NCBI GenBank assembly: GCA_038212275.1
Contig: JBBQUR010000009.1
Coordinates: 32,001 to 96,000 of the forward strand
Reading direction: 5' to 3'
DNA from: Planctomycetota bacterium
GTDB taxonomy: Bacteria > Planctomycetota > B15-G4
Length of the DNA stretch: 64,000 nucleotides
The notes below the pieces were generated by a model. That model did not search any database and was not told where the DNA came from. It saw only the letters and a list, made by a program, of their open reading frames with translations. Below are positions 20,646 through 41,446 of the stretch, piece by piece (within the stretch, counting starts at the first letter, position 1; each line of letters opens with the position of its first letter). Both the position numbers and the translations under genes were made by a program.

Positions 20646-21611
20646 ATGACGTCTCCACTCCGCATCGCCAGCTTGCTGCCGTCCGCGACGGAGATGGTCT
20701 GCGCGCTCGGCGCGGAGAGCGAGCTGGTCGGTGTCAGCCACGAGTGCGACTGGCCGCGCAGTGTCATCGGCCGCGCGGTCATCACCACGAGCAAGGTGAA
20801 GGTGCTGGGGAAGAGCGGCGAGATCGACCGCGACGTGCGCGCGCTGCTCAAGGACGCGCTCGCCGTGTACGACATCGACGACAGCGCGCTGGCGGACGCG
20901 GCGCCGGACGTCATCGTCACGCAGGACCTGTGCGACGTGTGCGCCGTCTCCTTCGACGACGTCGTGGCGGCGGCGCGGCGCGTGGCCAGGCCCGACGTGC
21001 GCATCGTCAACCTGCATCCGACGCGGCTCGCGGACATCTGGGCGGACATCCGCAAGGTGGCCGTCGCGCTGGGCCGCGAGGTGGAGGCCGACGCGGTGCT
21101 CGCCGACATGGATCGACGCGTCGAGCACGTGCGCCAGCGCGCCGCGACGTATCTCGCGCGCCGCGGCGCCGCCGCGCCGCCCAACGTGCTGACGCTGGAA
21201 TGGATCGACCCGGCGATGGTGGGCGGCACGTGGATGCCTGAACTCGTCGCGCTGGCGGGCGGCCGCGCGCTCGTCACCGTGCCCGGGCAGCACGCGCCGA
21301 CGCTCACGCGCGCGCAGCTCGCCGCGCTCGATCCCGCGCCGGACGTGGTCGTCATCAAGCCCTGCGGTTTCGAACTGCCGCGCACGCTCAAGGAATCCGA
21401 CGCGCTGGGCGACCTGCTCGGCGGCCTGCCGTGGCCCGCCGTGCGCGAGGGCCGCGTGTGGGTCGCGGACGGCAACGCCTACTTCAACCGCCCGGGTCCG
21501 CGCATCGTGGATTCGCTGGAGATCATGGCCGCCTGCGTGCACCCCGACGTCTTTGCCGACTTCGCCGCGCACTACGCCGGCGCCTTTCGCCGCTTCGGAG
21601 TGCGAGCTTGA
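20646..21611 (+). CDS. BtuF/cobalamin-binding-like solute-binding family protein (no signal peptide)
   Basis: RIASLLPSATE, LVGVSHECDWP, TQDLCDVCAV, LEWIDP and YFNRPGPRIVDSLE motifs. Confidence 0.88.
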   Translation: MTSPLRIASLLPSATEMVCALGAESELVGVSHECDWPRSVIGRAVITTSKVKVLGKSGEIDRDVRALLKDALAVYDIDDSALADAAPDVIVTQDLCDVCAVSFDDVVAAARRVARPDVRIVNLHPTRLADIWADIRKVAVALGREVEADAVLADMDRRVEHVRQRAATYLARRGAAAPPNVLTLEWIDPAMVGGTWMPELVALAGGRALVTVPGQHAPTLTRAQLAALDPAPDVVVIKPCGFELPRTLKESDALGDLLGGLPWPAVREGRVWVADGNAYFNRPGPRIVDSLEIMAACVHPDVFADFAAHYAGAFRRFGVRA

Positions 21612-23278
21612 GCGCCCTGCTGACGACGAGCGGCGACAACGGCCCGGCGCGCCTGACACGTGTGATTCCGGCCCTGCTTCTGCTGTCGACGTTGAGCTGT
21701 CACGCAAGCGCGGCGGCGCAGAGTGCAGCCGTCGTGTACGCGACCGGCCCCGACGTGACCGCCGCCGAGATTGCGCGGCACGTGCATGCGCTGGCCGATG
21801 ACGCGATGGCCGGCCGCGCGACCGGTTCCGCGGAGAGTCTCGCCGCGGCTGCATATCTCGAGGGCGTGCTGCGCGATGCGGGCCTGCGCGGCGCCGGAGA
21901 TGGCGGCAGCTTCCTGCAGACCACCGACACGCGCCGCTTCACCAGCGACGGTGTGCCGACCCTCGAATTCTTCACGGTGCAGCGGCCGGCGATGGATGCC
22001 GACCTGATGACTGCTGCCGACGCCGGGGTCGCGCCTTCAGGCATGGCAGCCGTCACGGCGGCACCCGGAGCGGACTTCGCGTATCGATCGGGCGGGCCGG
22101 TCGATGCGACGCTCGCGCTCGTCATCGCAGCCACCGCCGCCGATGTGCCGAAGACGCCGCGCGCCGACGCCGCGCTGTACCTGCCGACCGGCGGCCGCAC
22201 CGCGCGTTCCTGGTTGTCGGCGGCGGGTGCTCCGGACGGCCGGGGCTGGGGGCTGCTGCTTCTCGCCGGCGACGACACGGCCGGCACGCCGGACGAGCAG
22301 CCCGTGACCGGCTTGCTCACGGCGCCCGCCGATCAGCCGCTTCCGCCGACGTCCTTCACCGTGCGCGGGCCCTTGCGCGACCGGCTCGCGGCGGGGGAGT
22401 TTGCCGGTCTGCGCGCCGCGTTGCGCGCTGCCGCGCTGGTCCCTGCCGTAAATGTCGTCGGCGTGCTGGACGGCGCGGGCACGCCGGACCATCCCGAACT
22501 TGCGCGGCAGGCCGTCGTCTTCACCGCGCACTACGACCACCTCGGCGTGGCGCGCAATGCGGACGATGTGGCGCGGCTCGCAGCAGGCGCCGTGCCCGAC
22601 CTCATCTACAACGGCGCGGATGACGACGCGTCGGGCTGCGCGGCGGTGCTCGAACTCGCGCAGGCCTTCGGCGCGGAGGCGCGCGCGGGCCGGCCGCCGG
22701 CGCGCACGCTGGTCTTCCTGCTCGTCACGGGCGAGGAGGTCGGGCTCATCGGCACGCGCTACTACCTGGACCATCCGGTCGTGCCGCTCGCCGAGACGGT
22801 GTGCAACCTCAACTTCGAGATGATCGGAAGGCCCGATGCACTCGTCGGCGGCGCGGGCAAGCTGTGGCTCACGGGCTTCGAACGCAGCAACCTCGGGCCG
22901 GCGTGGGCTGGCGCGGGCCTCGACATCGCGCCGGACGCGCGGCCGGAGGAGCACTTCTTCGAGCGCTCCGACAACATCGCCTTCGTCATGCGCGGCATCG
23001 TCGGCCAGACGCTCTCCAGCTACAACCTGCACGAGGACTACCACCACGTGACCGACGCGCCGGACACGCTGGACTTCCTGCACATGGAGACGGCCGTGCG
23101 CGCCGGACTCGCCGCCGCGCGCACGCTGGCCGACGGCACGCTGACTCCCGCATGGATCGGCCCGCCGCCCGCCCCGCCTGCTCGGCCCGGCGCGCCCGCT
23201 GCACCCGGAGAACCCGCTTCGCCCAGCGCACCCGCTGCAGAGGGCGCGGCAAGCGGCGCGCCGGGAGGGCCGCGATGA
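21608..23278 (+). CDS. Secreted M28 family metallopeptidase
   Basis: GRATGS, AHYDHLG, NGADDDASG, GEEVGL.G, RSDN and DYHHVTD motifs. Start is TTG 21608 or GTG 21662. Confidence 0.9.
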   Translation: MSALLTTSGDNGPARLTRVIPALLLLSTLSCHASAAAQSAAVVYATGPDVTAAEIARHVHALADDAMAGRATGSAESLAAAAYLEGVLRDAGLRGAGDGGSFLQTTDTRRFTSDGVPTLEFFTVQRPAMDADLMTAADAGVAPSGMAAVTAAPGADFAYRSGGPVDATLALVIAATAADVPKTPRADAALYLPTGGRTARSWLSAAGAPDGRGWGLLLLAGDDTAGTPDEQPVTGLLTAPADQPLPPTSFTVRGPLRDRLAAGEFAGLRAALRAAALVPAVNVVGVLDGAGTPDHPELARQAVVFTAHYDHLGVARNADDVARLAAGAVPDLIYNGADDDASGCAAVLELAQAFGAEARAGRPPARTLVFLLVTGEEVGLIGTRYYLDHPVVPLAETVCNLNFEMIGRPDALVGGAGKLWLTGFERSNLGPAWAGAGLDIAPDARPEEHFFERSDNIAFVMRGIVGQTLSSYNLHEDYHHVTDAPDTLDFLHMETAVRAGLAAARTLADGTLTPAWIGPPPAPPARPGAPAAPGEPASPSAPAAEGAASGAPGGPR

Positions 23279-23820
23279 AGGCCCACATCCACATGATCGA
23301 CGAGGGCGATGCCGACGATGAGCTGAAGCGGCTGTATCGCGAGGCGGCCGGCGCGCCCGGTGCGGCGGTCGACAACATCCTCAAGATCCATTCGCTGGAC
23401 CCCGCGGGCCTGCGCGCGCACCTCGCGCTGTATCGCTCCGCGATGACCGGCACGCCGGGGCTGCCCAAGCTGGAGCGCGAGATGATCGCGCTGGTCGTCA
23501 GCTCCGTGAACGGGTGCCGATACTGAATGGTGCATCACCGGCGCGGTCTGCGCCGACTCGCCCGCAACGATGCGCTGGTGGCGCGCCTCGAGGCCGATCA
23601 CGCCACGGCGGGCCTCGACCCGCGGCAGCGGGCGATCCTCGACTACGCGGTCAAGTTGACGAAGACGCCCGGCGCCGTGCTGGCCGCCGACGTGCAGCGG
23701 CTGCGCGACGCGGGCCTTTCGGACGCCGATATCCTCGGCGTCGCCGAAGTCACCGGATACTACGCGTACGTGAACCGGATCGCGTCGGGGCTCGGCGTGC
23801 CGCTGGAAGGCGAGAGCTGA
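23275..23820 (+). CDS. AhpD/CMD-family peroxidase-related enzyme, probable selenoprotein (TGA 23524-23526 read as Sec84)
   Basis: Two in-frame ORF halves join into one 181-aa protein: EREMIALVVSSVNGCRY[TGA]MVHH...LDPRQRAILDYAVKLT..P...LRDAGLSDADI...YVNRIASGLG. The TGA falls at the second Cys position of the CxxC motif. Confidence 0.9.
23524..23555 (+). promoter_or_regulatory. Bacterial SECIS element
   Basis: Stem cggcgc (23539-44) pairs with gcgccg (23550-55) around loop GGUCU, which begins after an 18-nt gap from the UGA. Loop sequence and spacing match the E. coli fdhF SECIS as I recall it. Confidence 0.8.
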
Positions 23821-23883
23821 GCAACCTGTCGCGCGAGCGGCGCGCGGCTGAACGGCCGGCCCTCGATCGCTACCGTGGCGGCA

Positions 23884-26800
23884 ATGTCCGAGAGCCAGCC
23901 ACCGCTGCCGCCTGAGCGCGCGCCGACCGAAGCCGCCTCGCCGGAGCTGCGGCCGCCGAGGCGTGGCTCGCTGCTGCGGCGCACGCTGGGTCTGCTGCTG
24001 CTCGTGCTCGTGCTGGCCGTGGCGGCGGTCCTCACCTTCGCCGACCGGCTGCTGCTGCCGTGGTTGCTGCCCGTGGCCCAGGCCGAGGCGCGCGCGCACG
24101 GCCTGCAACTCGAGGTCGCGCGCCTCGCGGGGAGCTTGACGTCCACGATCGTGCTGCAGGACGTGCGCGTGACGACGCGCGATCCCTCGCTGCCCGCCGC
24201 AGAGCTGCTGGTGCCGGAGCTGGAGTTGCACTGGTCGCCGTGGCGCGCGCTGATCGGCGCGGCCGAACCGCTGCATGGCCTGCACCTGCACGGCGGCACG
24301 CTGCACCTGGACCTGACGCGCGACGGCGACGCCGATGCGCCGGGCGCGGCGTGGGAAGCCGGCACGCTGGCGCGGCTCGGGCAGCAGCTCGACCTGCTGC
24401 CGGCGCTTTCCGTCGACGACCTGCGCGTGGACTTGCGCGCGCCGTCGGGCGGGCTGCTGGACGCGCCCGAGCTGGTCGCACGCGCCACGCTCTTCGTGGA
24501 CGGCCGGCGCGTCGAACTGCGCGACGGCCGCGTCGACGGAGACGGTCCCGAGGGTCGCCTGCCCGAGGGCCTGCAGCTGCTCGCGCCGCTGCGCCTCGAC
24601 CTCTCGCGACTGGACCGGGACGAACTGCCTTTCGAGCTGGAAGTCGCCGCGGGAGGCGGCGTGCTGTCCGCGCAGGGCAGCGTGAAGGGCGACACGCTTG
24701 CCAGTGACGTCACCGCGCAAGGCGTCGCCCTGGAGGCGGTGTGGCGCGCGGTGCAGGGCGCAGGCGGCGAGCCGTCACCGCTGTCAGGGCCGCTGCTCCT
24801 CGAGGGCGAGCTGCGCGTGCCGCTCGGCGCCGGCGTCGCACTTCCCGGCGCCGTCAGCGCCGACGCCGAGCCGGTGCCGCAGGCGACCGCGACGGCGCAC
24901 GTCACGCTGGGAGCGTTCCGCGCGTGGGGCTTGTCGCTGGACGGCGCCACGGGCGCGCTGTCCTGGCGCGACGGCGCGCTGCACGCGGAGGACGTGCAGC
25001 TCACGCAGCACGGCAATCGCGTGCTCGTGGAACAGGCCGACCTGCCCGCCGGCGCGGACTGGCAGGCGCTGGCGCTGCAACTGAACGTGGCCATCGACGA
25101 CGTGCCCGCCCTGCTCGCCTCGTTGCGCGCCGCGGAGCTGCTGCCGGACCTGCCGGAGTCGCACGCCTGGGAGCTTGCCCGGCAGTTCGGGGCGCAGGTC
25201 GTCGCGCGTGCGCACAGCCTCACGCTGCACGCCGCGCTGCGGGACGGCACGGCGAGCGTGACCGACGCCGTGTTCCGCACCGCGGGCGGCTCGCTGTCCG
25301 TGCCGAGGGCCTCGCTGGATCTGTCCGCGCCGGATCTCGCTGCGGCAGCCATGGGCGTGCGCCTCGATGCGGAGTTCACGGACCTCGCGCCGCTGGGCGC
25401 GCTGCTCGGCGAGCGGCTGTTTCCGGGGGCGCGCTCGGCGCAGTGGGCCGGCGCGCTCACCGCGCACCTGGATCTCGCCGGCAGCATTGCGCAGCCCGTC
25501 GCGCAGCTGCAGGTCGACGGGCGCGAGCTGCTCGTCGCTGGCTGGCCGCTCGGTGTCGTGACGCTGAAGGCCAGCGCCGATGCGCGCGAGCTGACGGTCG
25601 CCGCCTTCGATGTGGAGGCCGGCGCCTCGCACGTGTCGGCGCAGGGTGCGCTGGACCTGGCGTCGCTGGGTCTGCGTGGCGTGCGCGTGCAGGTGAACGT
25701 TCCGGATCTCGCAGCGGCGCTTCCGGACTCGGGCGTGCGCGGGGCGCTCGATGCCCGCGGAGAACTGGACGGCCCGCTCGTGCTGCCGCTCGGCAGTCTC
25801 GAGCTGCACGTCAGCAAGCTTTTCGCGCACGGTGTGGCGGTGGATGACCTGCAGCTTGCGGCGACGCGCACGCCCGGGGTGCTCGGCGTGCAGCGCGCTC
25901 TGCTGCAGGCGCCGTGGGGCACGCTGGAGGCGGCCGGCTCGCTGAACTTCGACGAGGCGGACGACGGCTCCTTCGATGCGTGGCCTGACCGGTTGACGTC
26001 GCTCTCGCTCGATCGGCTGGTGCTCTCGCGCGGCACGCTGGACCTCTCGCTCGCCGAACCGGCGACGCTGCGGCGCGTCACGGGCGCGGCGAGGGCCGAC
26101 GAGGCGGGGCCCGGTCTCGGCGTGTGGAGCGGCGGGCCGCTCCAGTTCGCGGGCAGCGCGGGCGTGCTGCATGCGACGCTGCTCGCGGCGCCATCGGCCA
26201 CGGGCGTCGGCACGCTGCAGCGCGTGCAACTCGTCGCGGAGCGCCTGCAGCCGCTGCTGCCGCTGCCCGCGGACAGCAGCGTGGAGACCTTCGACGGAGA
26301 TCTGGACGTCGTCTTCGGCGCCGAGGAACTCGCCGTCTCGGGCACGCTGCGCGGGCTGGGTCTTGCGCTGGCTCTCGGGCCCGGTGCCGTCGGCGCGGAG
26401 CAGGGCGGCGCCGACGAGGTCGCGCCGGGCGCTGCGGCTGCCGGCGCAGGCAGAGCGGACTCCCGCGTCGGCGTCCGCGGCGACGTCACCGCGTGGTTGC
26501 GCGTCACGGGCACGCTGTCCGCGCCGCGCGGCGAGGTGGAGATCTCCGGGCGTCGCGTCGTGGTCACCGCGCCGGGCCGGCTGGCGGCTGAGGGTTTCGG
26601 GCCGTGCACGCTGGATGCGCACGTCACGCTGGACGAACAGCTCGTCATCGACTGGCTGCACGTGGACTCGCCGCACCAGGTGCACCTCGACGCGCACGGC
26701 ACGATGGAAAGACCATCAGGCGATCTCGCGCAGCTTGCGCAAACGCCCGTGCACATGACGGTCAGCGTGTCGGCCGGGGAACTCGACCGGCTCTCGCAGC

Positions 26801-27990
26801 TGCTGCTCGACGTGCGCCGCATGAGCGGCGAGCTGGCTGCCGAGCTGAGCCTCGACGGCCCGCTCGGCGCGCCGCATGCCAGCGGTTCCATCGACGTGCG
26901 TGACGGCGAATTGCGCCTGCAGGGCGCGCTGCCCGCTCTCGATGCGCTGGAGGCGCGGCTCGAATGGGCCGACGGCCGCATCGTGATCCGCACCTTCACC
27001 GGCGAACTGGGCAGCTCGCCGTTCACGCTCACGGGCGAGGGTTGGCTGAGTGCCGACGGCCCGCAGCTCGACCTCGCGCTGAGCGGCGAGGACCTGCTGT
27101 TCTATCGCGCCGACGGCGTGACCGTGCGCGCCGACAGCAAGCTCACGGTGCGCGGCGTGCCCTCCGCGCTGGCCGTCAAGGGCTCGCTCGCGCTGCGCAA
27201 CAGCGGCGTCGTGTCCAGTGTCAACCTGCTGCACTTCGCGCAGGGAGGCAATGCCGGGCCAGGCCGCGGCCTGCGCCTGTTCAGCTTCCGCGAGCCGCCG
27301 CTCTCGGGTCTCGTCTTCGACGTGCGCATCATCACCGCCGAGCCCTTCCTCGTGCGCAACAACGTCGTGCGCGGAACGCTGCGCCCCGACCTGCGGCTCA
27401 CCGGCACCGGCGTCGCGCCGATTCTCGACGGCACGCTGGCGGTCGAGGGCGCGCGTGTCATCCTGCCCGCCGGCGGCGTGAACCTGGACTCGGGGCGCGT
27501 GCTGTTCAGCGCGGCGGATCCGCTCGTGCCGCAGCTCGATCTCACCGCGTCCGCGCGGCGTCGCGGCTACGACATCTCGGTGCGCATCAGCGGTCCGTAC
27601 GACCAGCCGGTGGTGTCGCTCAGCTCCGTGCCACCGTTGGCGTCCGACAAGATCCTGCTGCTGCTGCTCACGGGGCAGGCGCCGGGGCGCGACGAAGCGG
27701 GGCCGGCGGGAAGCGACACGACGACGCACGTCGTCTCCGTGTACCTCGGGCAGGACCTGCTCGCGCGCTGGCTGGGCGACTCGCCGCTCGGCGAAGACGG
27801 CCTGCTCGACCGGCTCGACGTGGATGTCGTGAAGGACCTCTCGCGCAACAACGCCGAGCTGCTGCAGGTGAGCTACCGGCTCTCCAAGGTTCCGAAACAC
27901 GGCGGCACCGTGACCTTCCTGCGCGCCGAGAAAGACCTCTACGGCCGCATCAACTTCGGCGTGCAATTCCTCTTCCGGATCGAAGGGTGA
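23884..27990 (+). CDS. tamB: Translocation/assembly module TamB (AsmA-like) protein
   Basis: N-terminal TM anchor, long beta-rich body, and a C-terminal DUF490-like region (P.LDLTA...YDISVRISGP..QP..SLSSVPPL..D.IL.LLLTG). Confidence 0.85.
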   Translation: MSESQPPLPPERAPTEAASPELRPPRRGSLLRRTLGLLLLVLVLAVAAVLTFADRLLLPWLLPVAQAEARAHGLQLEVARLAGSLTSTIVLQDVRVTTRDPSLPAAELLVPELELHWSPWRALIGAAEPLHGLHLHGGTLHLDLTRDGDADAPGAAWEAGTLARLGQQLDLLPALSVDDLRVDLRAPSGGLLDAPELVARATLFVDGRRVELRDGRVDGDGPEGRLPEGLQLLAPLRLDLSRLDRDELPFELEVAAGGGVLSAQGSVKGDTLASDVTAQGVALEAVWRAVQGAGGEPSPLSGPLLLEGELRVPLGAGVALPGAVSADAEPVPQATATAHVTLGAFRAWGLSLDGATGALSWRDGALHAEDVQLTQHGNRVLVEQADLPAGADWQALALQLNVAIDDVPALLASLRAAELLPDLPESHAWELARQFGAQVVARAHSLTLHAALRDGTASVTDAVFRTAGGSLSVPRASLDLSAPDLAAAAMGVRLDAEFTDLAPLGALLGERLFPGARSAQWAGALTAHLDLAGSIAQPVAQLQVDGRELLVAGWPLGVVTLKASADARELTVAAFDVEAGASHVSAQGALDLASLGLRGVRVQVNVPDLAAALPDSGVRGALDARGELDGPLVLPLGSLELHVSKLFAHGVAVDDLQLAATRTPGVLGVQRALLQAPWGTLEAAGSLNFDEADDGSFDAWPDRLTSLSLDRLVLSRGTLDLSLAEPATLRRVTGAARADEAGPGLGVWSGGPLQFAGSAGVLHATLLAAPSATGVGTLQRVQLVAERLQPLLPLPADSSVETFDGDLDVVFGAEELAVSGTLRGLGLALALGPGAVGAEQGGADEVAPGAAAAGAGRADSRVGVRGDVTAWLRVTGTLSAPRGEVEISGRRVVVTAPGRLAAEGFGPCTLDAHVTLDEQLVIDWLHVDSPHQVHLDAHGTMERPSGDLAQLAQTPVHMTVSVSAGELDRLSQLLLDVRRMSGELAAELSLDGPLGAPHASGSIDVRDGELRLQGALPALDALEARLEWADGRIVIRTFTGELGSSPFTLTGEGWLSADGPQLDLALSGEDLLFYRADGVTVRADSKLTVRGVPSALAVKGSLALRNSGVVSSVNLLHFAQGGNAGPGRGLRLFSFREPPLSGLVFDVRIITAEPFLVRNNVVRGTLRPDLRLTGTGVAPILDGTLAVEGARVILPAGGVNLDSGRVLFSAADPLVPQLDLTASARRRGYDISVRISGPYDQPVVSLSSVPPLASDKILLLLLTGQAPGRDEAGPAGSDTTTHVVSVYLGQDLLARWLGDSPLGEDGLLDRLDVDVVKDLSRNNAELLQVSYRLSKVPKHGGTVTFLRAEKDLYGRINFGVQFLFRIEG

Positions 27991-30218
27991 GGTCGCGACT
28001 GCACGCCCCGCCGCCGGACAAGTCGCGCCTGTTCGCGTCGCGCGTGCTGCTGGCGTTGCTGCTGGCGCTGGTCGTGGTTGCCCCGCTGGCAGCGCAGACG
28101 GCCGAGACGCTGCTGCCCGTGTCGTCCGACGAGGTCCGCGCGGCCGAGCAGGCCGATGATGCGGTGGCCGATGCGGCGGCGGATGCGGCCGTCGATGCGA
28201 CGGCGGCGGCGGCCGCGGCAGGCGCCGCGCAGCCGGCGTCGTCCGCCTCCGCACCGCAGGCGCACGTCGTGTTCGTCGGTGGGGCCGGCGTGCCCGAGTC
28301 GCTGCGGCTGCGCGCGATGGCGGACAGCATGGAGGATCTGGCCGGCGGCAAGCGGCGTCGTGCCGCGGCGGATGACGCGGCCTACGCGCTGGAGCAGCTC
28401 TACCACACGCAGGGCTTCCCGTTCGTCACGGTGGAGGTGTCCTTCGGTGATGCGGAGTCGCCGGATCCTGCGGGGCCCGTCACCTTCACGCTGGTCGAGG
28501 GCCCGCGCACCGCGCTCGTCTCGGTGACGATCGAAGGCAACACAGCCTTCTCCGACGACGAGCTGCAGGAGCTCTTCCGCGACCGGGATCGCGGCCTGCT
28601 CGCCCCGGGCCTCGCGTGGTACAGCGCCGACGCGATGAGCGATGCGATCTCGACGATCTCCGCCGTGTACTGGAGCGACGGCTACCTGCAGTCCGAGGTG
28701 GACGAGCCGGTCGTGGAGTTCAGCGAGGACGGCACGCGTGCGACGGTCACGGTGACGCTGCGCGAGGGGCCTGCGTACCGGTTGCGTCGCGTGGAGTTCA
28801 CCGGCGTGCGCATCTATCCTGAGGACGCGCTTCGCGAGCAGGTGGCCGGCTTCATCGACCGCGCCTACTTTCCGCAGGTGGCCTTCGCGGCGCGTGCGCG
28901 GCTGCTGGAGTTCTACGGCGCGCGCGGCCACACCGAAGCGAGCGTGGAGTTCGAGGAGGTCCGCGACGACGAGAGCGGCGACGTCGGCCTGCTGTTTCAT
29001 GTCGAAGCCGGGCCGCGGCTGTCGGTGGCCGGCATCCGCATCGAGGGCATCGAGCGTACGAAGCCGGACTTCCTGCTGAGACGGCTCGCCTTCGAGACCG
29101 GCGACACGTGGACCACGACCGCGCAGCGTGACAGCTACGAAGCGCTGCACCGCAGCGGCCTGTTCGAGAGCATCGTCATCGAGCTGGATCCGGGCAGTGA
29201 GGACGAGCGCGAGGTGACGGTCAAGGTGGCGGAGCGCACGCCGCTCGAGGTCTACGTCGAGCCGGGCTACGGCAGCTACGAGGGGCCGCGACTGACGCTC
29301 GGCTACCGCGACCGCAACGTCGGCGGTTACGGGCGCATCTTCCACGCGGAAGGCTCGGTGTCGCCGAAGTCGCAGTCGGCGCTGGTCGGCCTGACGGATC
29401 CGTGGTTCGCCAAGGACCTCACGGCCGACGTCTCGGTCTTCGCGATCCACCGCGAAGAGCCGTCGTTCACCAGCGGTGATCTCGGCGTGGCGGCCACGCT
29501 GGACCTGCGCATCACGCCACGCTGGCAGACGCAGTTCGGCTACATCTACAGGAAGTCCACGGTCTCGAACGTGGATGCGGTCACCGCCGAGGTGAAGGAC
29601 GCCGTCGAGAACGTGGACATCTCCTCGATCAGCGTCTCGCCCATCTACGACAGCCGCGACGACGTCTTCGCGCCCACGGACGGCATGCTGTGGCGGACGA
29701 CGCTCGAGTACGGCGGCTCGGTGCTGGGCAGCGAGCTCAACTTCGTGCGCGGCGGCTACACGCACAGCGTCTTCACGCCGCTCTCCGCAGACGACGTGCT
29801 GGCGGCCTCCTTCCGCACCGGGATCATCGTGCCCGTCGGCAGCACGGACGTCATCCCGCTGCAGGAGCGCTACTTCAACGGCGGCGAGAACACGGTGCGC
29901 TCGTTCAAGGAAGACGAGCTCGGCCCGAAGGACAGCGATGGCAACCCGATCGGCGGCGAGGCCTACAGCGTCCTGTCCGCGGAACTGCGCCACAAGCTGA
30001 CGGAGTCGTTCGGCCTGGCCTTCTTCGTGGATCTCGGCAACGTGCAGGAAAACGCGAACGACTATCTCCACTTCTCCAACAGAGGCGCGGCGGTCGGCAC
30101 GGGTCTTCGCTACCTGCTGCCCATCGGCCCGGTGCGCCTGGACTTCGGCGTGAATCCCGACCCCAGGCAGGATGAGGACAGCTGGGTCGTGCAGTTCGCC
30201 GTGGGCGCCCCGTTCTGA
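27987..30218 (+). CDS. Omp85 family outer-membrane protein (TamA/BamA-like)
   Basis: POTRA-like segments (IEGNTAFSDDEL, Y...GYL), barrel motifs GGENTVRSF and GLRYLLPIGPVRLDFG, terminal Phe. GTG start overlaps the tamB stop. Confidence 0.9.
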   Translation: MRSRLHAPPPDKSRLFASRVLLALLLALVVVAPLAAQTAETLLPVSSDEVRAAEQADDAVADAAADAAVDATAAAAAAGAAQPASSASAPQAHVVFVGGAGVPESLRLRAMADSMEDLAGGKRRRAAADDAAYALEQLYHTQGFPFVTVEVSFGDAESPDPAGPVTFTLVEGPRTALVSVTIEGNTAFSDDELQELFRDRDRGLLAPGLAWYSADAMSDAISTISAVYWSDGYLQSEVDEPVVEFSEDGTRATVTVTLREGPAYRLRRVEFTGVRIYPEDALREQVAGFIDRAYFPQVAFAARARLLEFYGARGHTEASVEFEEVRDDESGDVGLLFHVEAGPRLSVAGIRIEGIERTKPDFLLRRLAFETGDTWTTTAQRDSYEALHRSGLFESIVIELDPGSEDEREVTVKVAERTPLEVYVEPGYGSYEGPRLTLGYRDRNVGGYGRIFHAEGSVSPKSQSALVGLTDPWFAKDLTADVSVFAIHREEPSFTSGDLGVAATLDLRITPRWQTQFGYIYRKSTVSNVDAVTAEVKDAVENVDISSISVSPIYDSRDDVFAPTDGMLWRTTLEYGGSVLGSELNFVRGGYTHSVFTPLSADDVLAASFRTGIIVPVGSTDVIPLQERYFNGGENTVRSFKEDELGPKDSDGNPIGGEAYSVLSAELRHKLTESFGLAFFVDLGNVQENANDYLHFSNRGAAVGTGLRYLLPIGPVRLDFGVNPDPRQDEDSWVVQFAVGAPF

Positions 30219-40774: not shown

Positions 40775-41197
40775 TCAGGTCGCTTCGCGCTCCAGCACGC
40801 CGCGCAGGATGACCGCCGCGGCGACGGAGTCCCGCAGGCGCTTCCGATCGCTGGGCCGCAGCCCCGCACCGCTGAGGAACGCCTCCGCCTCGTCGGTGCT
40901 GAGGCGTTCGTCCTCGAACTCGATGACCAGGCCCAGGCCTTCGCCCAGCACGGCGGCGAACCTGCGGACCTCGAGCGCCATCGGACCCTCGCTGCCGTCC
41001 ATGTTGTAGGGCAGGCCGATGACGACGCGTTCGATGCCGCGCTCGCGGATCAGCTCGGACAGCAGAGCGAGGTCCGCCGCAGGTGACTTCCGCTGCAGGG
41101 CTGGCAGCGGATGGCTGGCCATGCCGAGTGCGTCGCTGACTGCCAGGCCGTGGCGCACGCGGCCATAGTCGATCGCGAGCAGGCGACGGTGTGCCAT
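40775..41197 (-). CDS. ruvX: Holliday junction resolvase-like / pre-16S rRNA nuclease (YqgF)
   Basis: LAIDYG...GLAVSD, VIGLPYNMDGSEG, DERLST and D..AAAVIL motifs. Confidence 0.94.
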   Translation of the reverse strand: MAHRRLLAIDYGRVRHGLAVSDALGMASHPLPALQRKSPAADLALLSELIRERGIERVVIGLPYNMDGSEGPMALEVRRFAAVLGEGLGLVIEFEDERLSTDEAEAFLSGAGLRPSDRKRLRDSVAAAVILRGVLEREAT

Positions 41198-41446
41198 GGT
41201 CAGCGACGGCCCCGGGGCGCCAGACAACTCGCGGCGCGGCGTTTGCGCAGCCCGCCGAAAGGCGACCGTGTCGGCGAACTCCTGTTCCGCAATCCCGCCA
41301 TCGGGAGTATGGTCGCGCAGCGTGCGACCGGAGTTCCGGCCCGCCCCCTGATGATCGACACCTGGACTGCGGCCCGAAGCCCGGAAGCAGGACGCCACGA
41401 CGCGTCACCTGCCTTGCTGTCTGCATGTTCCGGAGGGTGGCTCTTC

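Follow-up and report, generated by a model that had tools for sequence, protein, structure and literature searches.

An AhpD-like gene with a conserved in-frame TGA, predicted to encode a CxxU selenoprotein

Positions 23275 to 23820 of the window, that is, of the whole stretch of 64,000 nucleotides that was analysed, very probably hold a single gene for an all-helical, AhpD-like oxidoreductase of the TIGR01926 type, with 181 residues, the motif C81-R-Y-U84 and a UGA codon that is read as selenocysteine (Sec). Judged from the sequence, the internal TGA at 23524-23526 itself almost certainly encodes Sec. The observations behind this reading concern the frame, the motif, the protein family and fold, a conserved UGA followed by a hairpin, and the Sec machinery of the genome. 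Together, the TIGR01926 match, the pairing of the codon with Cys in homologs, the conserved TGA and hairpin, and the sel genes support the original prediction, which had proposed one 181-residue selenoenzyme with a C81-x-x-U84 motif.

Reading frame and genomic neighbourhood

The frame that begins at ATG 23275 had been predicted to stay open to 23820, and its translation bears these coordinates out: on the forward strand it runs for 181 codons up to the TGA at 23818-23820 and is unbroken save for one in-frame TGA (Table 1). Around the latter, the sequence reads GGG TGC CGA TAC TGA ATG GTG CAT CAC, so that the read-through product of 181 residues contains C81-R-Y-U84-M-V-H87-H88. The initiation codon shares bases with the TGA that ends the M28 peptidase ORF upstream (ATGA). 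The proposed hairpin, with the arms cggcgc and gcgccg and a GGUCU loop after an 18-nt gap, is also read directly from the sequence. It begins 12 nt past the internal TGA and thus within the CDS, where it codes for R89-R90-G91-L92-R93-R94, and the GGTCT of its loop starts exactly 18 nt past the TGA.

Table 1. Positions of the gene, its notable codons and RNA elements, and the neighbouring ORFs in the window
Feature	Position	Strand	Remarks
M28-family peptidase ORF	21431..23278	+	Upstream, not part of the selenoprotein; Pfam PF04389, 110.7 bits; start codon unsettled
Shine-Dalgarno-like GGGAGGG	23262..23268	+	6 nt 5′ of the ATG; presumptive role
AhpD-like selenoprotein CDS (predicted)	23275..23820	+	181 codons plus terminal TGA
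Glu69 codon	23479..23481	+	Aligned with M. tuberculosis AhpD Glu118 (1gu9); invariant in 61/61 sequences
Cys81 codon TGC	23515..23517	+	First residue of CxxU; aligned with AhpD Cys130; invariant in 61/61 sequences
In-frame TGA, predicted U84	23524..23526	+	Aligned with AhpD Cys133
His88 codon	23536..23538	+	Aligned with AhpD His137; invariant in 61/61 sequences
SECIS-type hairpin	23539..23555	+	Arm CGGCGC 23539-23544, loop GGUCU 23545-23549, arm GCGCCG 23550-23555
Terminal TGA	23818..23820	+	Ordinary stop here; frame read directly
TamB/YhdP-like ORF	23875..27990	+	Downstream, not part of the selenoprotein
Omp85/POTRA ORF	26964-30218		After the TamB/YhdP-like ORF, not part of the selenoprotein

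Among 99 related loci searched with tblastn, only 1 has a homolog of the M28 peptidase next to the gene, and 0 have a match to the TamB-like ORF, for which residues 1-400 served as the query. A conserved operon partner was also sought by all-vs-all clustering of 1898 open frames from flanks of only 1.5-2.5 kb, and within that range no neighbour family exceeded 11 of 100 loci; the sole clusters above this number came from the gene, namely its two halves and the antisense frames that overlie it. Neither a peroxiredoxin nor another conserved partner stands beside the gene among its neighbours in the window or in the flanks of related loci. There is likewise no linkage to ahpC, and the Prx genes sit elsewhere in the genome.

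Protein family, fold and active site

The read-through product matches TIGR01926 ("peroxidase-related enzyme") with 145.8 bits, where the cut-off is 81.8, and its residues 5-177 cover positions 3-175 of the 178 in the profile. It had been proposed that both halves resemble one AhpD/CMD protein and, in effect, each half matches Pfam PF02627 (CMD) separately, the N-terminal one with an E value of 1.5e-05 and the C-terminal one with 1.6e-04, while the read-through product reaches 57.4 bits. By contrast, the score against the model for true AhpD, TIGR00777, is only 29.4 bits and lies below the cut-off of 191.95.

An AlphaFold2 model of the product is a single helical domain with a pLDDT of 95.9. 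The PDB chains 2prr, 3c1l, 2pfx and 6k40 fit this model at TM 0.85-0.90 over 169-178 alignment columns. For two of them, 3c1l and 2pfx (E 1e-31), the alignment continues uninterrupted over the TGA, and their CxxC faces the CxxU of the product. Alignment with 1gu9 places E69, C81, Y83, U84 and H88 opposite Glu118, Cys130, His132, Cys133 and His137, which are the residues of the AhpD proton relay according to PMC3141380. The catalytic Glu, Cys-x-x-Cys and His positions of true AhpD are therefore matched by E69, C81, U84 and H88, with Tyr83 at the site of His132. An alignment of homologs had been suggested as a check for Cys opposite the TGA; among 60 aligned homologs, 53 have the second Cys of CxxC in column 84, and the other 7 have W. 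By homology, the product would function as a small thiol/selenol oxidoreductase of the antioxidant kind.

Conservation of the TGA

The source genome is a 40-contig assembly from a sediment metagenome, 91% complete and with 70% G+C. The prediction was to be refuted if relatives conserved neither the TGA nor the hairpin, and both are conserved. When 41 genomes from the family and order of the source were searched, each of the best 41 rows had one TGA. At the CxxU site, the TGA is present in 20/20 loci fetched from these taxa, and in 80/80 loci of other phyla, which include Acidobacteriota, Planctomycetota, Chloroflexota, Calditrichia, Marinimicrobia, Gemmatimonadota and others; the hairpin stem has at least 5 bp in 87/92 orthologs (see below).

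The codon is also found in material assembled separately. A contig of 269 nt from a second sample (X2) is identical across the TGA; this sample belongs to the same study as the likely source, and the comparison was between contigs and not raw reads. Contigs from samples X3 and X5 were short or partial pieces, none of them crossing the TGA. In addition, a 157-nt contig from an RNA library spans the TGA; with 8 differences over this length, it stems from a relative, and it is no proof of transcription.

The hairpin downstream of the TGA

By itself, the hairpin is unremarkable within a gene of 70% G+C. Its 23-nt core folds with -12.2 kcal/mol (z -2.44), a value equalled by 8 of 200 shuffles, while windows of 36-56 nt have z values between -0.48 and +0.84. 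The minimum free energy (MFE) fold of a 52-nt stretch has a different pairing, with z -0.92, and 25-nt windows elsewhere in the same gene fold down to -14.8. A scan of 23000-24100 with Rfam at E up to 10 gave no match to a SECIS model, its sole match being M23 RNA at a chance-level E of 1.8. As fold statistics of a single sequence are not significant in a gene so rich in G+C, comparative tests were used, and what exceeds chance is the conserved TGA together with a hairpin at the same place in relatives.

Among 92 distinct orthologs, the mean MFE of 25-nt windows falls to between -8.4 and -8.5 at +9 to +12 nt past the TGA. The next-lowest mean among 140 offsets is -5.96, so that the profile has a single deep minimum. 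The stems of at least 5 bp in the 87 orthologs are centred on nt 22-24.5 and comprise 42 distinct stems, and G22, G23 and U26 are invariant. The register of the hairpin varies, with a pair sum of 44 in 37 orthologs, 46 in 22, 48 in 25 and other values in 8, and this variation rules out a single consensus structure for all 92. For this reason, the position-wise MFE profile was complemented with a count on a subset of 25 sequences that share the register of the hairpin at 23539-23555. In this subset, both partners of the three inner pairs are substituted in 11, 7 and 4 sequences, respectively, and none is unpaired, although the percentage paired is inflated because the sequences were chosen by register. 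Their covariation score is 0.470, compared with 0.126 after shuffling (0 of 500 shuffles reach 0.470) and no more than 0.163 after sliding the partners. The element also has the properties of a bacterial SECIS, as it is a hairpin located directly 3′ of the UGA and has a G in its apical loop.

Selenocysteine machinery of the genome

The prediction had held that the organism uses Sec and had pointed to selA, selB, selC and selD as the genes to look for; all four are present in the genome. The matches to selA (433.4 bits) and selD (354 bits) exceed their cut-offs, and selB reaches 292.6 bits, or 325.9 when a C-terminal piece is included, against a cut-off of 242. The tRNA-Sec (70.4 bits) has the anticodon TCA and lies about 3.5 kb from selD. 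Among 50 tRNAs, it is the only one with this anticodon, and tRNA-Trp has CCA. A Sec system that serves several redox selenoproteins clearly operates in this genome. Judging by their sequences, these would include SelD, whose gene has one in-frame TGA of its own, the AhpD-like protein encoded at 23275 and a candidate AhpD-like paralog; two genes of the peroxiredoxin family are probably selenoprotein genes as well.

Alternative readings of the TGA

If the TGA were a true stop, the region would encode two small proteins, one of 83 aa from 23275 and another of 97 aa from the ATG at 23527, which follows the TGA immediately. Stand-alone C-terminal halves do occur in public protein sets, where 16 among the 120 matches listed are 100-123 aa long and start at or one residue after the TGA. 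Nevertheless, ATG, GTG or TTG directly follows the TGA in only 35/92 orthologs, there is no Shine-Dalgarno-like run ahead of 23527, and the break would split the CxxC motif just where a helix begins in a single-domain fold, a place at which the Cys-containing homologs run continuously. Two separate proteins are thus very improbable. Even less credence is due to a pseudogene with a nonsense mutation, or to an assembly or sequencing error for TGC or TGT. The TGA is one base away from either of these codons and the assembly is in 40 contigs and 91% complete, but the same TGA appears in the 20/20 and 80/80 related loci, which come from independent assemblies, as well as in the second-sample contig, and both halves are conserved in frame.

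The UGA might also be translated without Sec, be it through genome-wide recoding (to Trp or Gly), near-cognate read-through or the loading of Cys on tRNA-Sec. The W at column 84 in seven database homologs would fit such a reading; we take it to be best explained by callers that use code 4 on short contigs. Against recoding, TGA terminates both the gene at 23275 and the upstream ORF, 10/10 matches to translation GTPases in the genome have no internal stop, and the sole tRNA with a UCA anticodon is tRNA-Sec, that for Trp having CCA. Insertion of another residue is accordingly improbable. The conserved hairpin at a SelB-type distance and the full set of sel genes argue for Sec.

Proposed decoding and chemistry

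Sec insertion itself, as well as the substrate and the reductant, can be proposed from the above and from homology. The UGA at 23524-23526 would be decoded as Sec when the hairpin, with GGUCU in its loop, is bound by SelB carrying Sec-tRNA(Sec). This tRNA would be charged via SelA, with selenophosphate provided by SelD. Where Sec-tRNA is not delivered, the ribosome would stop and release a fragment of 83 residues.

In the full-length protein, U84 is predicted to lie at the N-terminus of the helix 82-96 and, by homology, may act as the attacking selenolate, activated by a relay of Glu69, Tyr83 and His88. It would then reduce a peroxide or, alternatively, an oxidised partner, for instance a protein of the peroxiredoxin type. 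C81 would resolve the intermediate, forming a Se-S bond that could be re-reduced by a cellular reductant.

Annotation and evolutionary meaning

Automated callers either split the gene (83 aa + 97 aa) or read its TGA as Trp, and consequently databases miss both the active-site residue and the fact that the organism uses selenium. The splitting had been anticipated, and it can be recognized in the C-terminal halves mentioned above, among the 120 matches listed. The main value of the present reading is correct annotation, and it opens no new question.

The variants RRGLRR, RAGLAR, AEGLRR and GEGLLK are found around the Gly-Leu that the hairpin encodes. The SECIS stem may evolve via paired codon swaps, which would give rise to paired amino-acid changes flanking the invariant Gly-Leu. 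Among the 53 Cys-form homologs, 8 retain G-L at the position of the hairpin (e.g., ...CSYCVEHHFAGLRRL). It is conceivable, with a chance somewhat short of even, that the RNA has a stronger influence than the protein on residues 89-94 (R-R-G-L-R-R), and that these eight G-L Cys forms are recent Sec-to-Cys converts that carry a fossil SECIS. If this were true, the family could serve to date and count losses of Sec.

Comparison with known systems

The original prediction mentioned AhpD-like selenoproteins from other bacteria, and the literature has contained them since 2005. An AhpD-like protein with CXXU was described that year from the Sargasso Sea (27 sequences, COG2128; PMC1088965), the GOS survey of 2008 lists "AhpD-like 1" (COG2128, CxxU) with 299 selenoproteins versus 902 Cys homologs (PMC2398784), and a table in a 2026 review includes an AhpD-like protein with TIGR01926 and CxxU (PMC13188914). 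The present gene shares with this family TIGR01926, a CxxU with Sec for the second Cys, and a SECIS with a G in the apical loop. Nothing in it is different in kind; what belongs to its lineage is the stem CGGCGC/GCGCCG (RRGLRR). The gene is a further member of the established AhpD-like CxxU family, and its motif and type of SECIS are already published.

With AhpD of M. tuberculosis (1gu9 / 1knc; TIGR00777), the protein shares the helical CMD/AhpD core and the alignment of the five relay positions. Nonetheless, the fold match is weak (TM 0.53-0.56), Tyr replaces His132 and the predicted Sec replaces Cys133, and there is no adjoining ahpC. DR1765 of Deinococcus radiodurans (6k40), 3c1l, 2pfx, 2prr and 2oyo have the same subfamily fold (E 1e-31 to 1e-19), but all of them are Cys forms (CxxC) and none has a SECIS. 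For DR1765, PMC8945050 reports that a deletion mutant is sensitive to H2O2 and that CxxC is needed for full complementation.

The bulged U in the upper stem of the E. coli fdhF SECIS is a determinant for SelB. In contrast, the stem described here is a perfect one of 6 bp, closed by C-G and devoid of a bulged U. The spacing and the GGUCU loop of fdhF, which the prediction had cited, are confirmed by the E. coli K-12 sequence (NC_000913.3), in which the TGA is followed by 18 nt and then GGTCT. Both elements thus have the same UGA-18 nt-GGUCU apical loop, in host proteins that are unrelated.

Reading frame and protein family

The locus is very probably a real gene decoded with selenocysteine (Sec). 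Its read-through frame has 181 codons and, on translation, carries C81, U84 (the predicted Sec), H87 and H88; re-reading of the sequence reproduced every coordinate and count previously given for the ORF, the in-frame TGA, the hairpin and the spacing between them. In a profile search, residues 5-177 of the read-through hit the NCBIfam model TIGR01926, "peroxidase-related enzyme", with 145.8 bits (cut-off 81.8). Pfam CMD (PF02627) is matched by the full read-through and also by either half on its own, in agreement with the proposal that both halves resemble one CMD/AhpD protein. The original prediction of one 181-aa selenoenzyme with a C81-x-x-U84 motif is supported by the TIGR01926 match, by the conservation of TGA and hairpin, and by the sel genes.

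Alignments with the solved structures 3c1l and 2pfx (E 1e-31) run unbroken over the TGA, and the CxxC of these proteins faces C81/U84. An AlphaFold2 model made with 61 sequences (the query and 60 homologs) consists of one all-helical domain (pLDDT 95.9, pTM 0.91) with the CxxU motif at the beginning of helix 82-96; its Foldseek neighbours are 2prr, 3c1l, 2pfx, 6k40 and 2oyo (TM 0.85-0.90). Throughout the 61-sequence alignment, E69, C81, Y83 and H88 are unchanged. In AhpD, the nucleophile is the second Cys; in the protein studied here, U84 would be the attacking selenolate of the CxxU redox centre and C81 the resolving residue. According to a review (PMC8945050), protection from H2O2 is a role of the homolog DR1765 (6k40), whose CxxC is required for full complementation; for the selenoprotein itself, substrate and reductant are inferred.

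At 23275-23278, in an ATGA, the ATG of the selenoprotein shares bases with the TGA that terminates the M28 peptidase ORF upstream, an overlap that suggests translational coupling.

Features of the gene, its surroundings and the source genome (G000; C1, C2, C21 and C24 are its contigs)
Feature	Position	Strand	Remarks
GGGAGGG before ATG	23262-23268	+	read from sequence
ATG start	23275	+	read from sequence
In-frame TGA	23524-23526	+	within ...VSSVNGCRY-TGA-MVHH...
Hairpin	arm CGGCGC 23539-23544, loop GGTCT 23545-23549, arm GCGCCG 23550-23555	+	
Terminal TGA	23818-23820	+	frame open from 23275 up to here
Upstream neighbour			M28 peptidase ORF
Downstream neighbours			TamB/YhdP-like ORF, Omp85/POTRA ORF
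Second AhpD-like paralog	G000:C1:290795-291373	-	outside window; 45% identical; C-F-Y-TGA-V-A-A-H
AhpC-TSA PF00578 with one in-frame TGA	G000:C2:43820-44185	+	2/11 matches in genome, with next row
AhpC-TSA PF00578 with one in-frame TGA	G000:C21:3006-3359	-	
selB	C1:45684		292.6 bits, 325.9 with C-terminal piece
selA	G000:C24:63811-65133	-	433.4 bits
selD	G000:C24:62717-63643	-	354 bits; one in-frame TGA; adjoins selA
tRNA-Sec	G000:C24:59120-59216	-	70.4 bits, anticodon TCA; ~3.5 kb from selD
Cys forms keeping Gly-Leu			P0015, P0016, P0021, P0042, P0043, P0047, P0059, P0061 (protein alignment)

Conservation of the TGA

The TGA is kept in relatives. When 41 genomes belonging to the same family and order were searched, one TGA was present in each of the 41 top-scoring rows (E at or below 1.4e-21), and the CxxU site holds it in 20/20 loci fetched from these groups, 14 being C-x-Y-U-x-x-H-H, as in the gene under study, and 6 C-F-Y-U. 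A wider scan, in which each species was represented by a single genome, gave 80 loci in Acidobacteriota, Planctomycetota, Chloroflexota, Calditrichia, Marinimicrobia, Gemmatimonadota, Acidimicrobiia and other groups, all 80 with TGA at the CxxU codon (six further regex matches in this output fall outside the gene). In one relative, the ortholog (L034, G005:C29:40685-40969 and 41030-41290) is split into two matches separated by a 60-nt gap, the first covering residues 2-96 and including the TGA, the second covering residues 96-179, which suggests that this copy carries a frameshift or insertion.

A 269-nt contig of X2, a second-sample sequencing run that shares one study with the likely source, is identical to 23488-23756, TGA included. 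A 157-nt contig of the RNA library X9, from a relative, spans 23448-23604 with 8 differences, none listed at the TGA. As backing for the TGA these contigs are weak, and that of X9 does not imply transcription.

Conservation of the hairpin

In the window sequence on its own, the hairpin is barely beyond chance. Its 23-nt core (-12.2 kcal/mol, z -2.44) is equalled by 8 of 200 shuffles, windows of 36-56 nt around it give z of -0.48 to +0.84, and the MFE structure of the 52-nt stretch pairs differently from the proposed hairpin. Elsewhere in the gene, 25-nt windows go down to -14.8 kcal/mol; the G+C content of the genome is 70.1%. An Rfam scan of the hairpin region returned no family, its single match being at chance level (E 1.8). 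Therefore, the case rests on comparison with relatives.

For this comparison, 94 stretches of 51 nt starting at the TGA were reduced to 92 distinct orthologs by dropping one exact duplicate and one with N. G22, G23 and U26 are invariant among them. When MFE was averaged over the 92 orthologs (140 windows of 25 nt, step 3 nt, between -210 and +207), a single deep minimum appeared at +9 (-8.42) and +12 (-8.54), and no window elsewhere went below -5.96; the window at +12 ranks first in stability in 18/92 genes and among the top six in 52/92. A contiguous stem of at least 5 bp centred at nt 22-24.5 is present in 87/92, built from 42 different stem sequences in varying register (pair sums 44, n=37; 46, n=22; 48, n=25; other, n=8). 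Among the 25 sequences in the register of the window, both partners of the three inner pairs have been replaced in 11, 7 and 4 cases, respectively, and these pairs are broken in none, the percentage paired being inflated because this subset was picked by register. Its covariation score is 0.470; shuffled sequences give 0.126 (0/500 reach 0.470), and sliding the partners gives no more than 0.163. These stem swaps are mirrored in the protein as paired residue changes (RRGLRR, RAGLAR, AEGLRR, GEGLLK).

Decoding and alternative readings

As expected from the prediction that the organism uses Sec, selA, selB, selC (tRNA-Sec) and selD were all found in the genome, with selB on a different contig from the other three. 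SelB with Sec-tRNA(Sec) would recognise the hairpin and bring Sec to UGA 84.

The TGA could instead be read throughout the genome as a sense codon. Nevertheless, TGA ends both the gene and the upstream ORF, the anticodon TCA occurs only in tRNA-Sec among the 50 tRNAs found by ARAGORN (tRNA-Trp has CCA), and internal stops interrupt 0/10 GTPase matches; genome-wide recoding is therefore excluded. Two separate genes would be the other reading, and database entries do take that form: 16 of the 120 matches listed are 100-123 aa long (63-70% identity) and start 1-2 residues past the TGA, the splitting by gene callers that had been foreseen. ATG, GTG or TTG lies immediately 3′ of the TGA in only 35/92 orthologs, and the two-gene reading is very unlikely. 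Opposite the TGA, homologs have Cys (53/60) or Trp (7/60) in column 84, and the Trp entries, among them five of the six closest to the query among the matches listed, most likely come from gene callers translating TGA as Trp.

Among the 53 homologs with Cys, eight retain Gly-Leu where the SECIS loop is encoded in the Sec forms, e.g. CSYCVEHHFAGLRRL; these eight may have switched from Sec to Cys recently and still bear a fossil SECIS.

Genomic surroundings and other candidates

The gene is a stand-alone unit whose contexts differ between genomes: of 99 related loci, one has the M28 peptidase next to it and none has the TamB-like ORF, and every family in the flanks is limited to 11 or fewer of 100 loci. 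For the second paralog, NF041238 ('CFYUT') is a possible family; in the 6 relatives of C-F-Y-U type, another hairpin, GACCUCC-GGUC-GGAGGUC or similar, directly follows the TGA. By their in-frame TGA, the two AhpC-TSA genes are probably peroxiredoxin-type selenoproteins, and selD is probably a selenoprotein itself.

Comparison with known systems

The gene adds one member to an already known selenoprotein family, and the worth of the finding is in annotation. The "AhpD-like protein" was introduced by the Sargasso Sea study (COG2128, CXXU, 27 sequences, predicted SECIS; PMC1088965), the GOS study counted 299 selenoproteins versus 902 Cys homologs for AhpD-like 1 (COG2128, CxxU; PMC2398784), a 2026 review tabulates "AhpD-like protein, TIGR01926, CxxU" (PMC13188914), and BSepDB illustrates browsing with this family (PMC13326102).

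Alignment with M. tuberculosis AhpD (1gu9) places E69/C81/Y83/U84/H88 at Glu118/Cys130/His132/Cys133/His137, the proton relay of AhpD according to a structural paper (PMC3141380). All five relay positions align, with Y83 opposite His132 and U84 opposite Cys133, but the read-through scores 29.4 bits with the true AhpD model TIGR00777, below its cut-off of 191.95. The SECIS of fdhF in E. coli K-12 (NC_000913.3) has the arrangement originally stated, TGA, 18 nt and GGTCT, and the window has the same loop at the same distance; in contrast, the window stem is a perfect 6 bp without the bulged U, which is a determinant for E. coli SelB.
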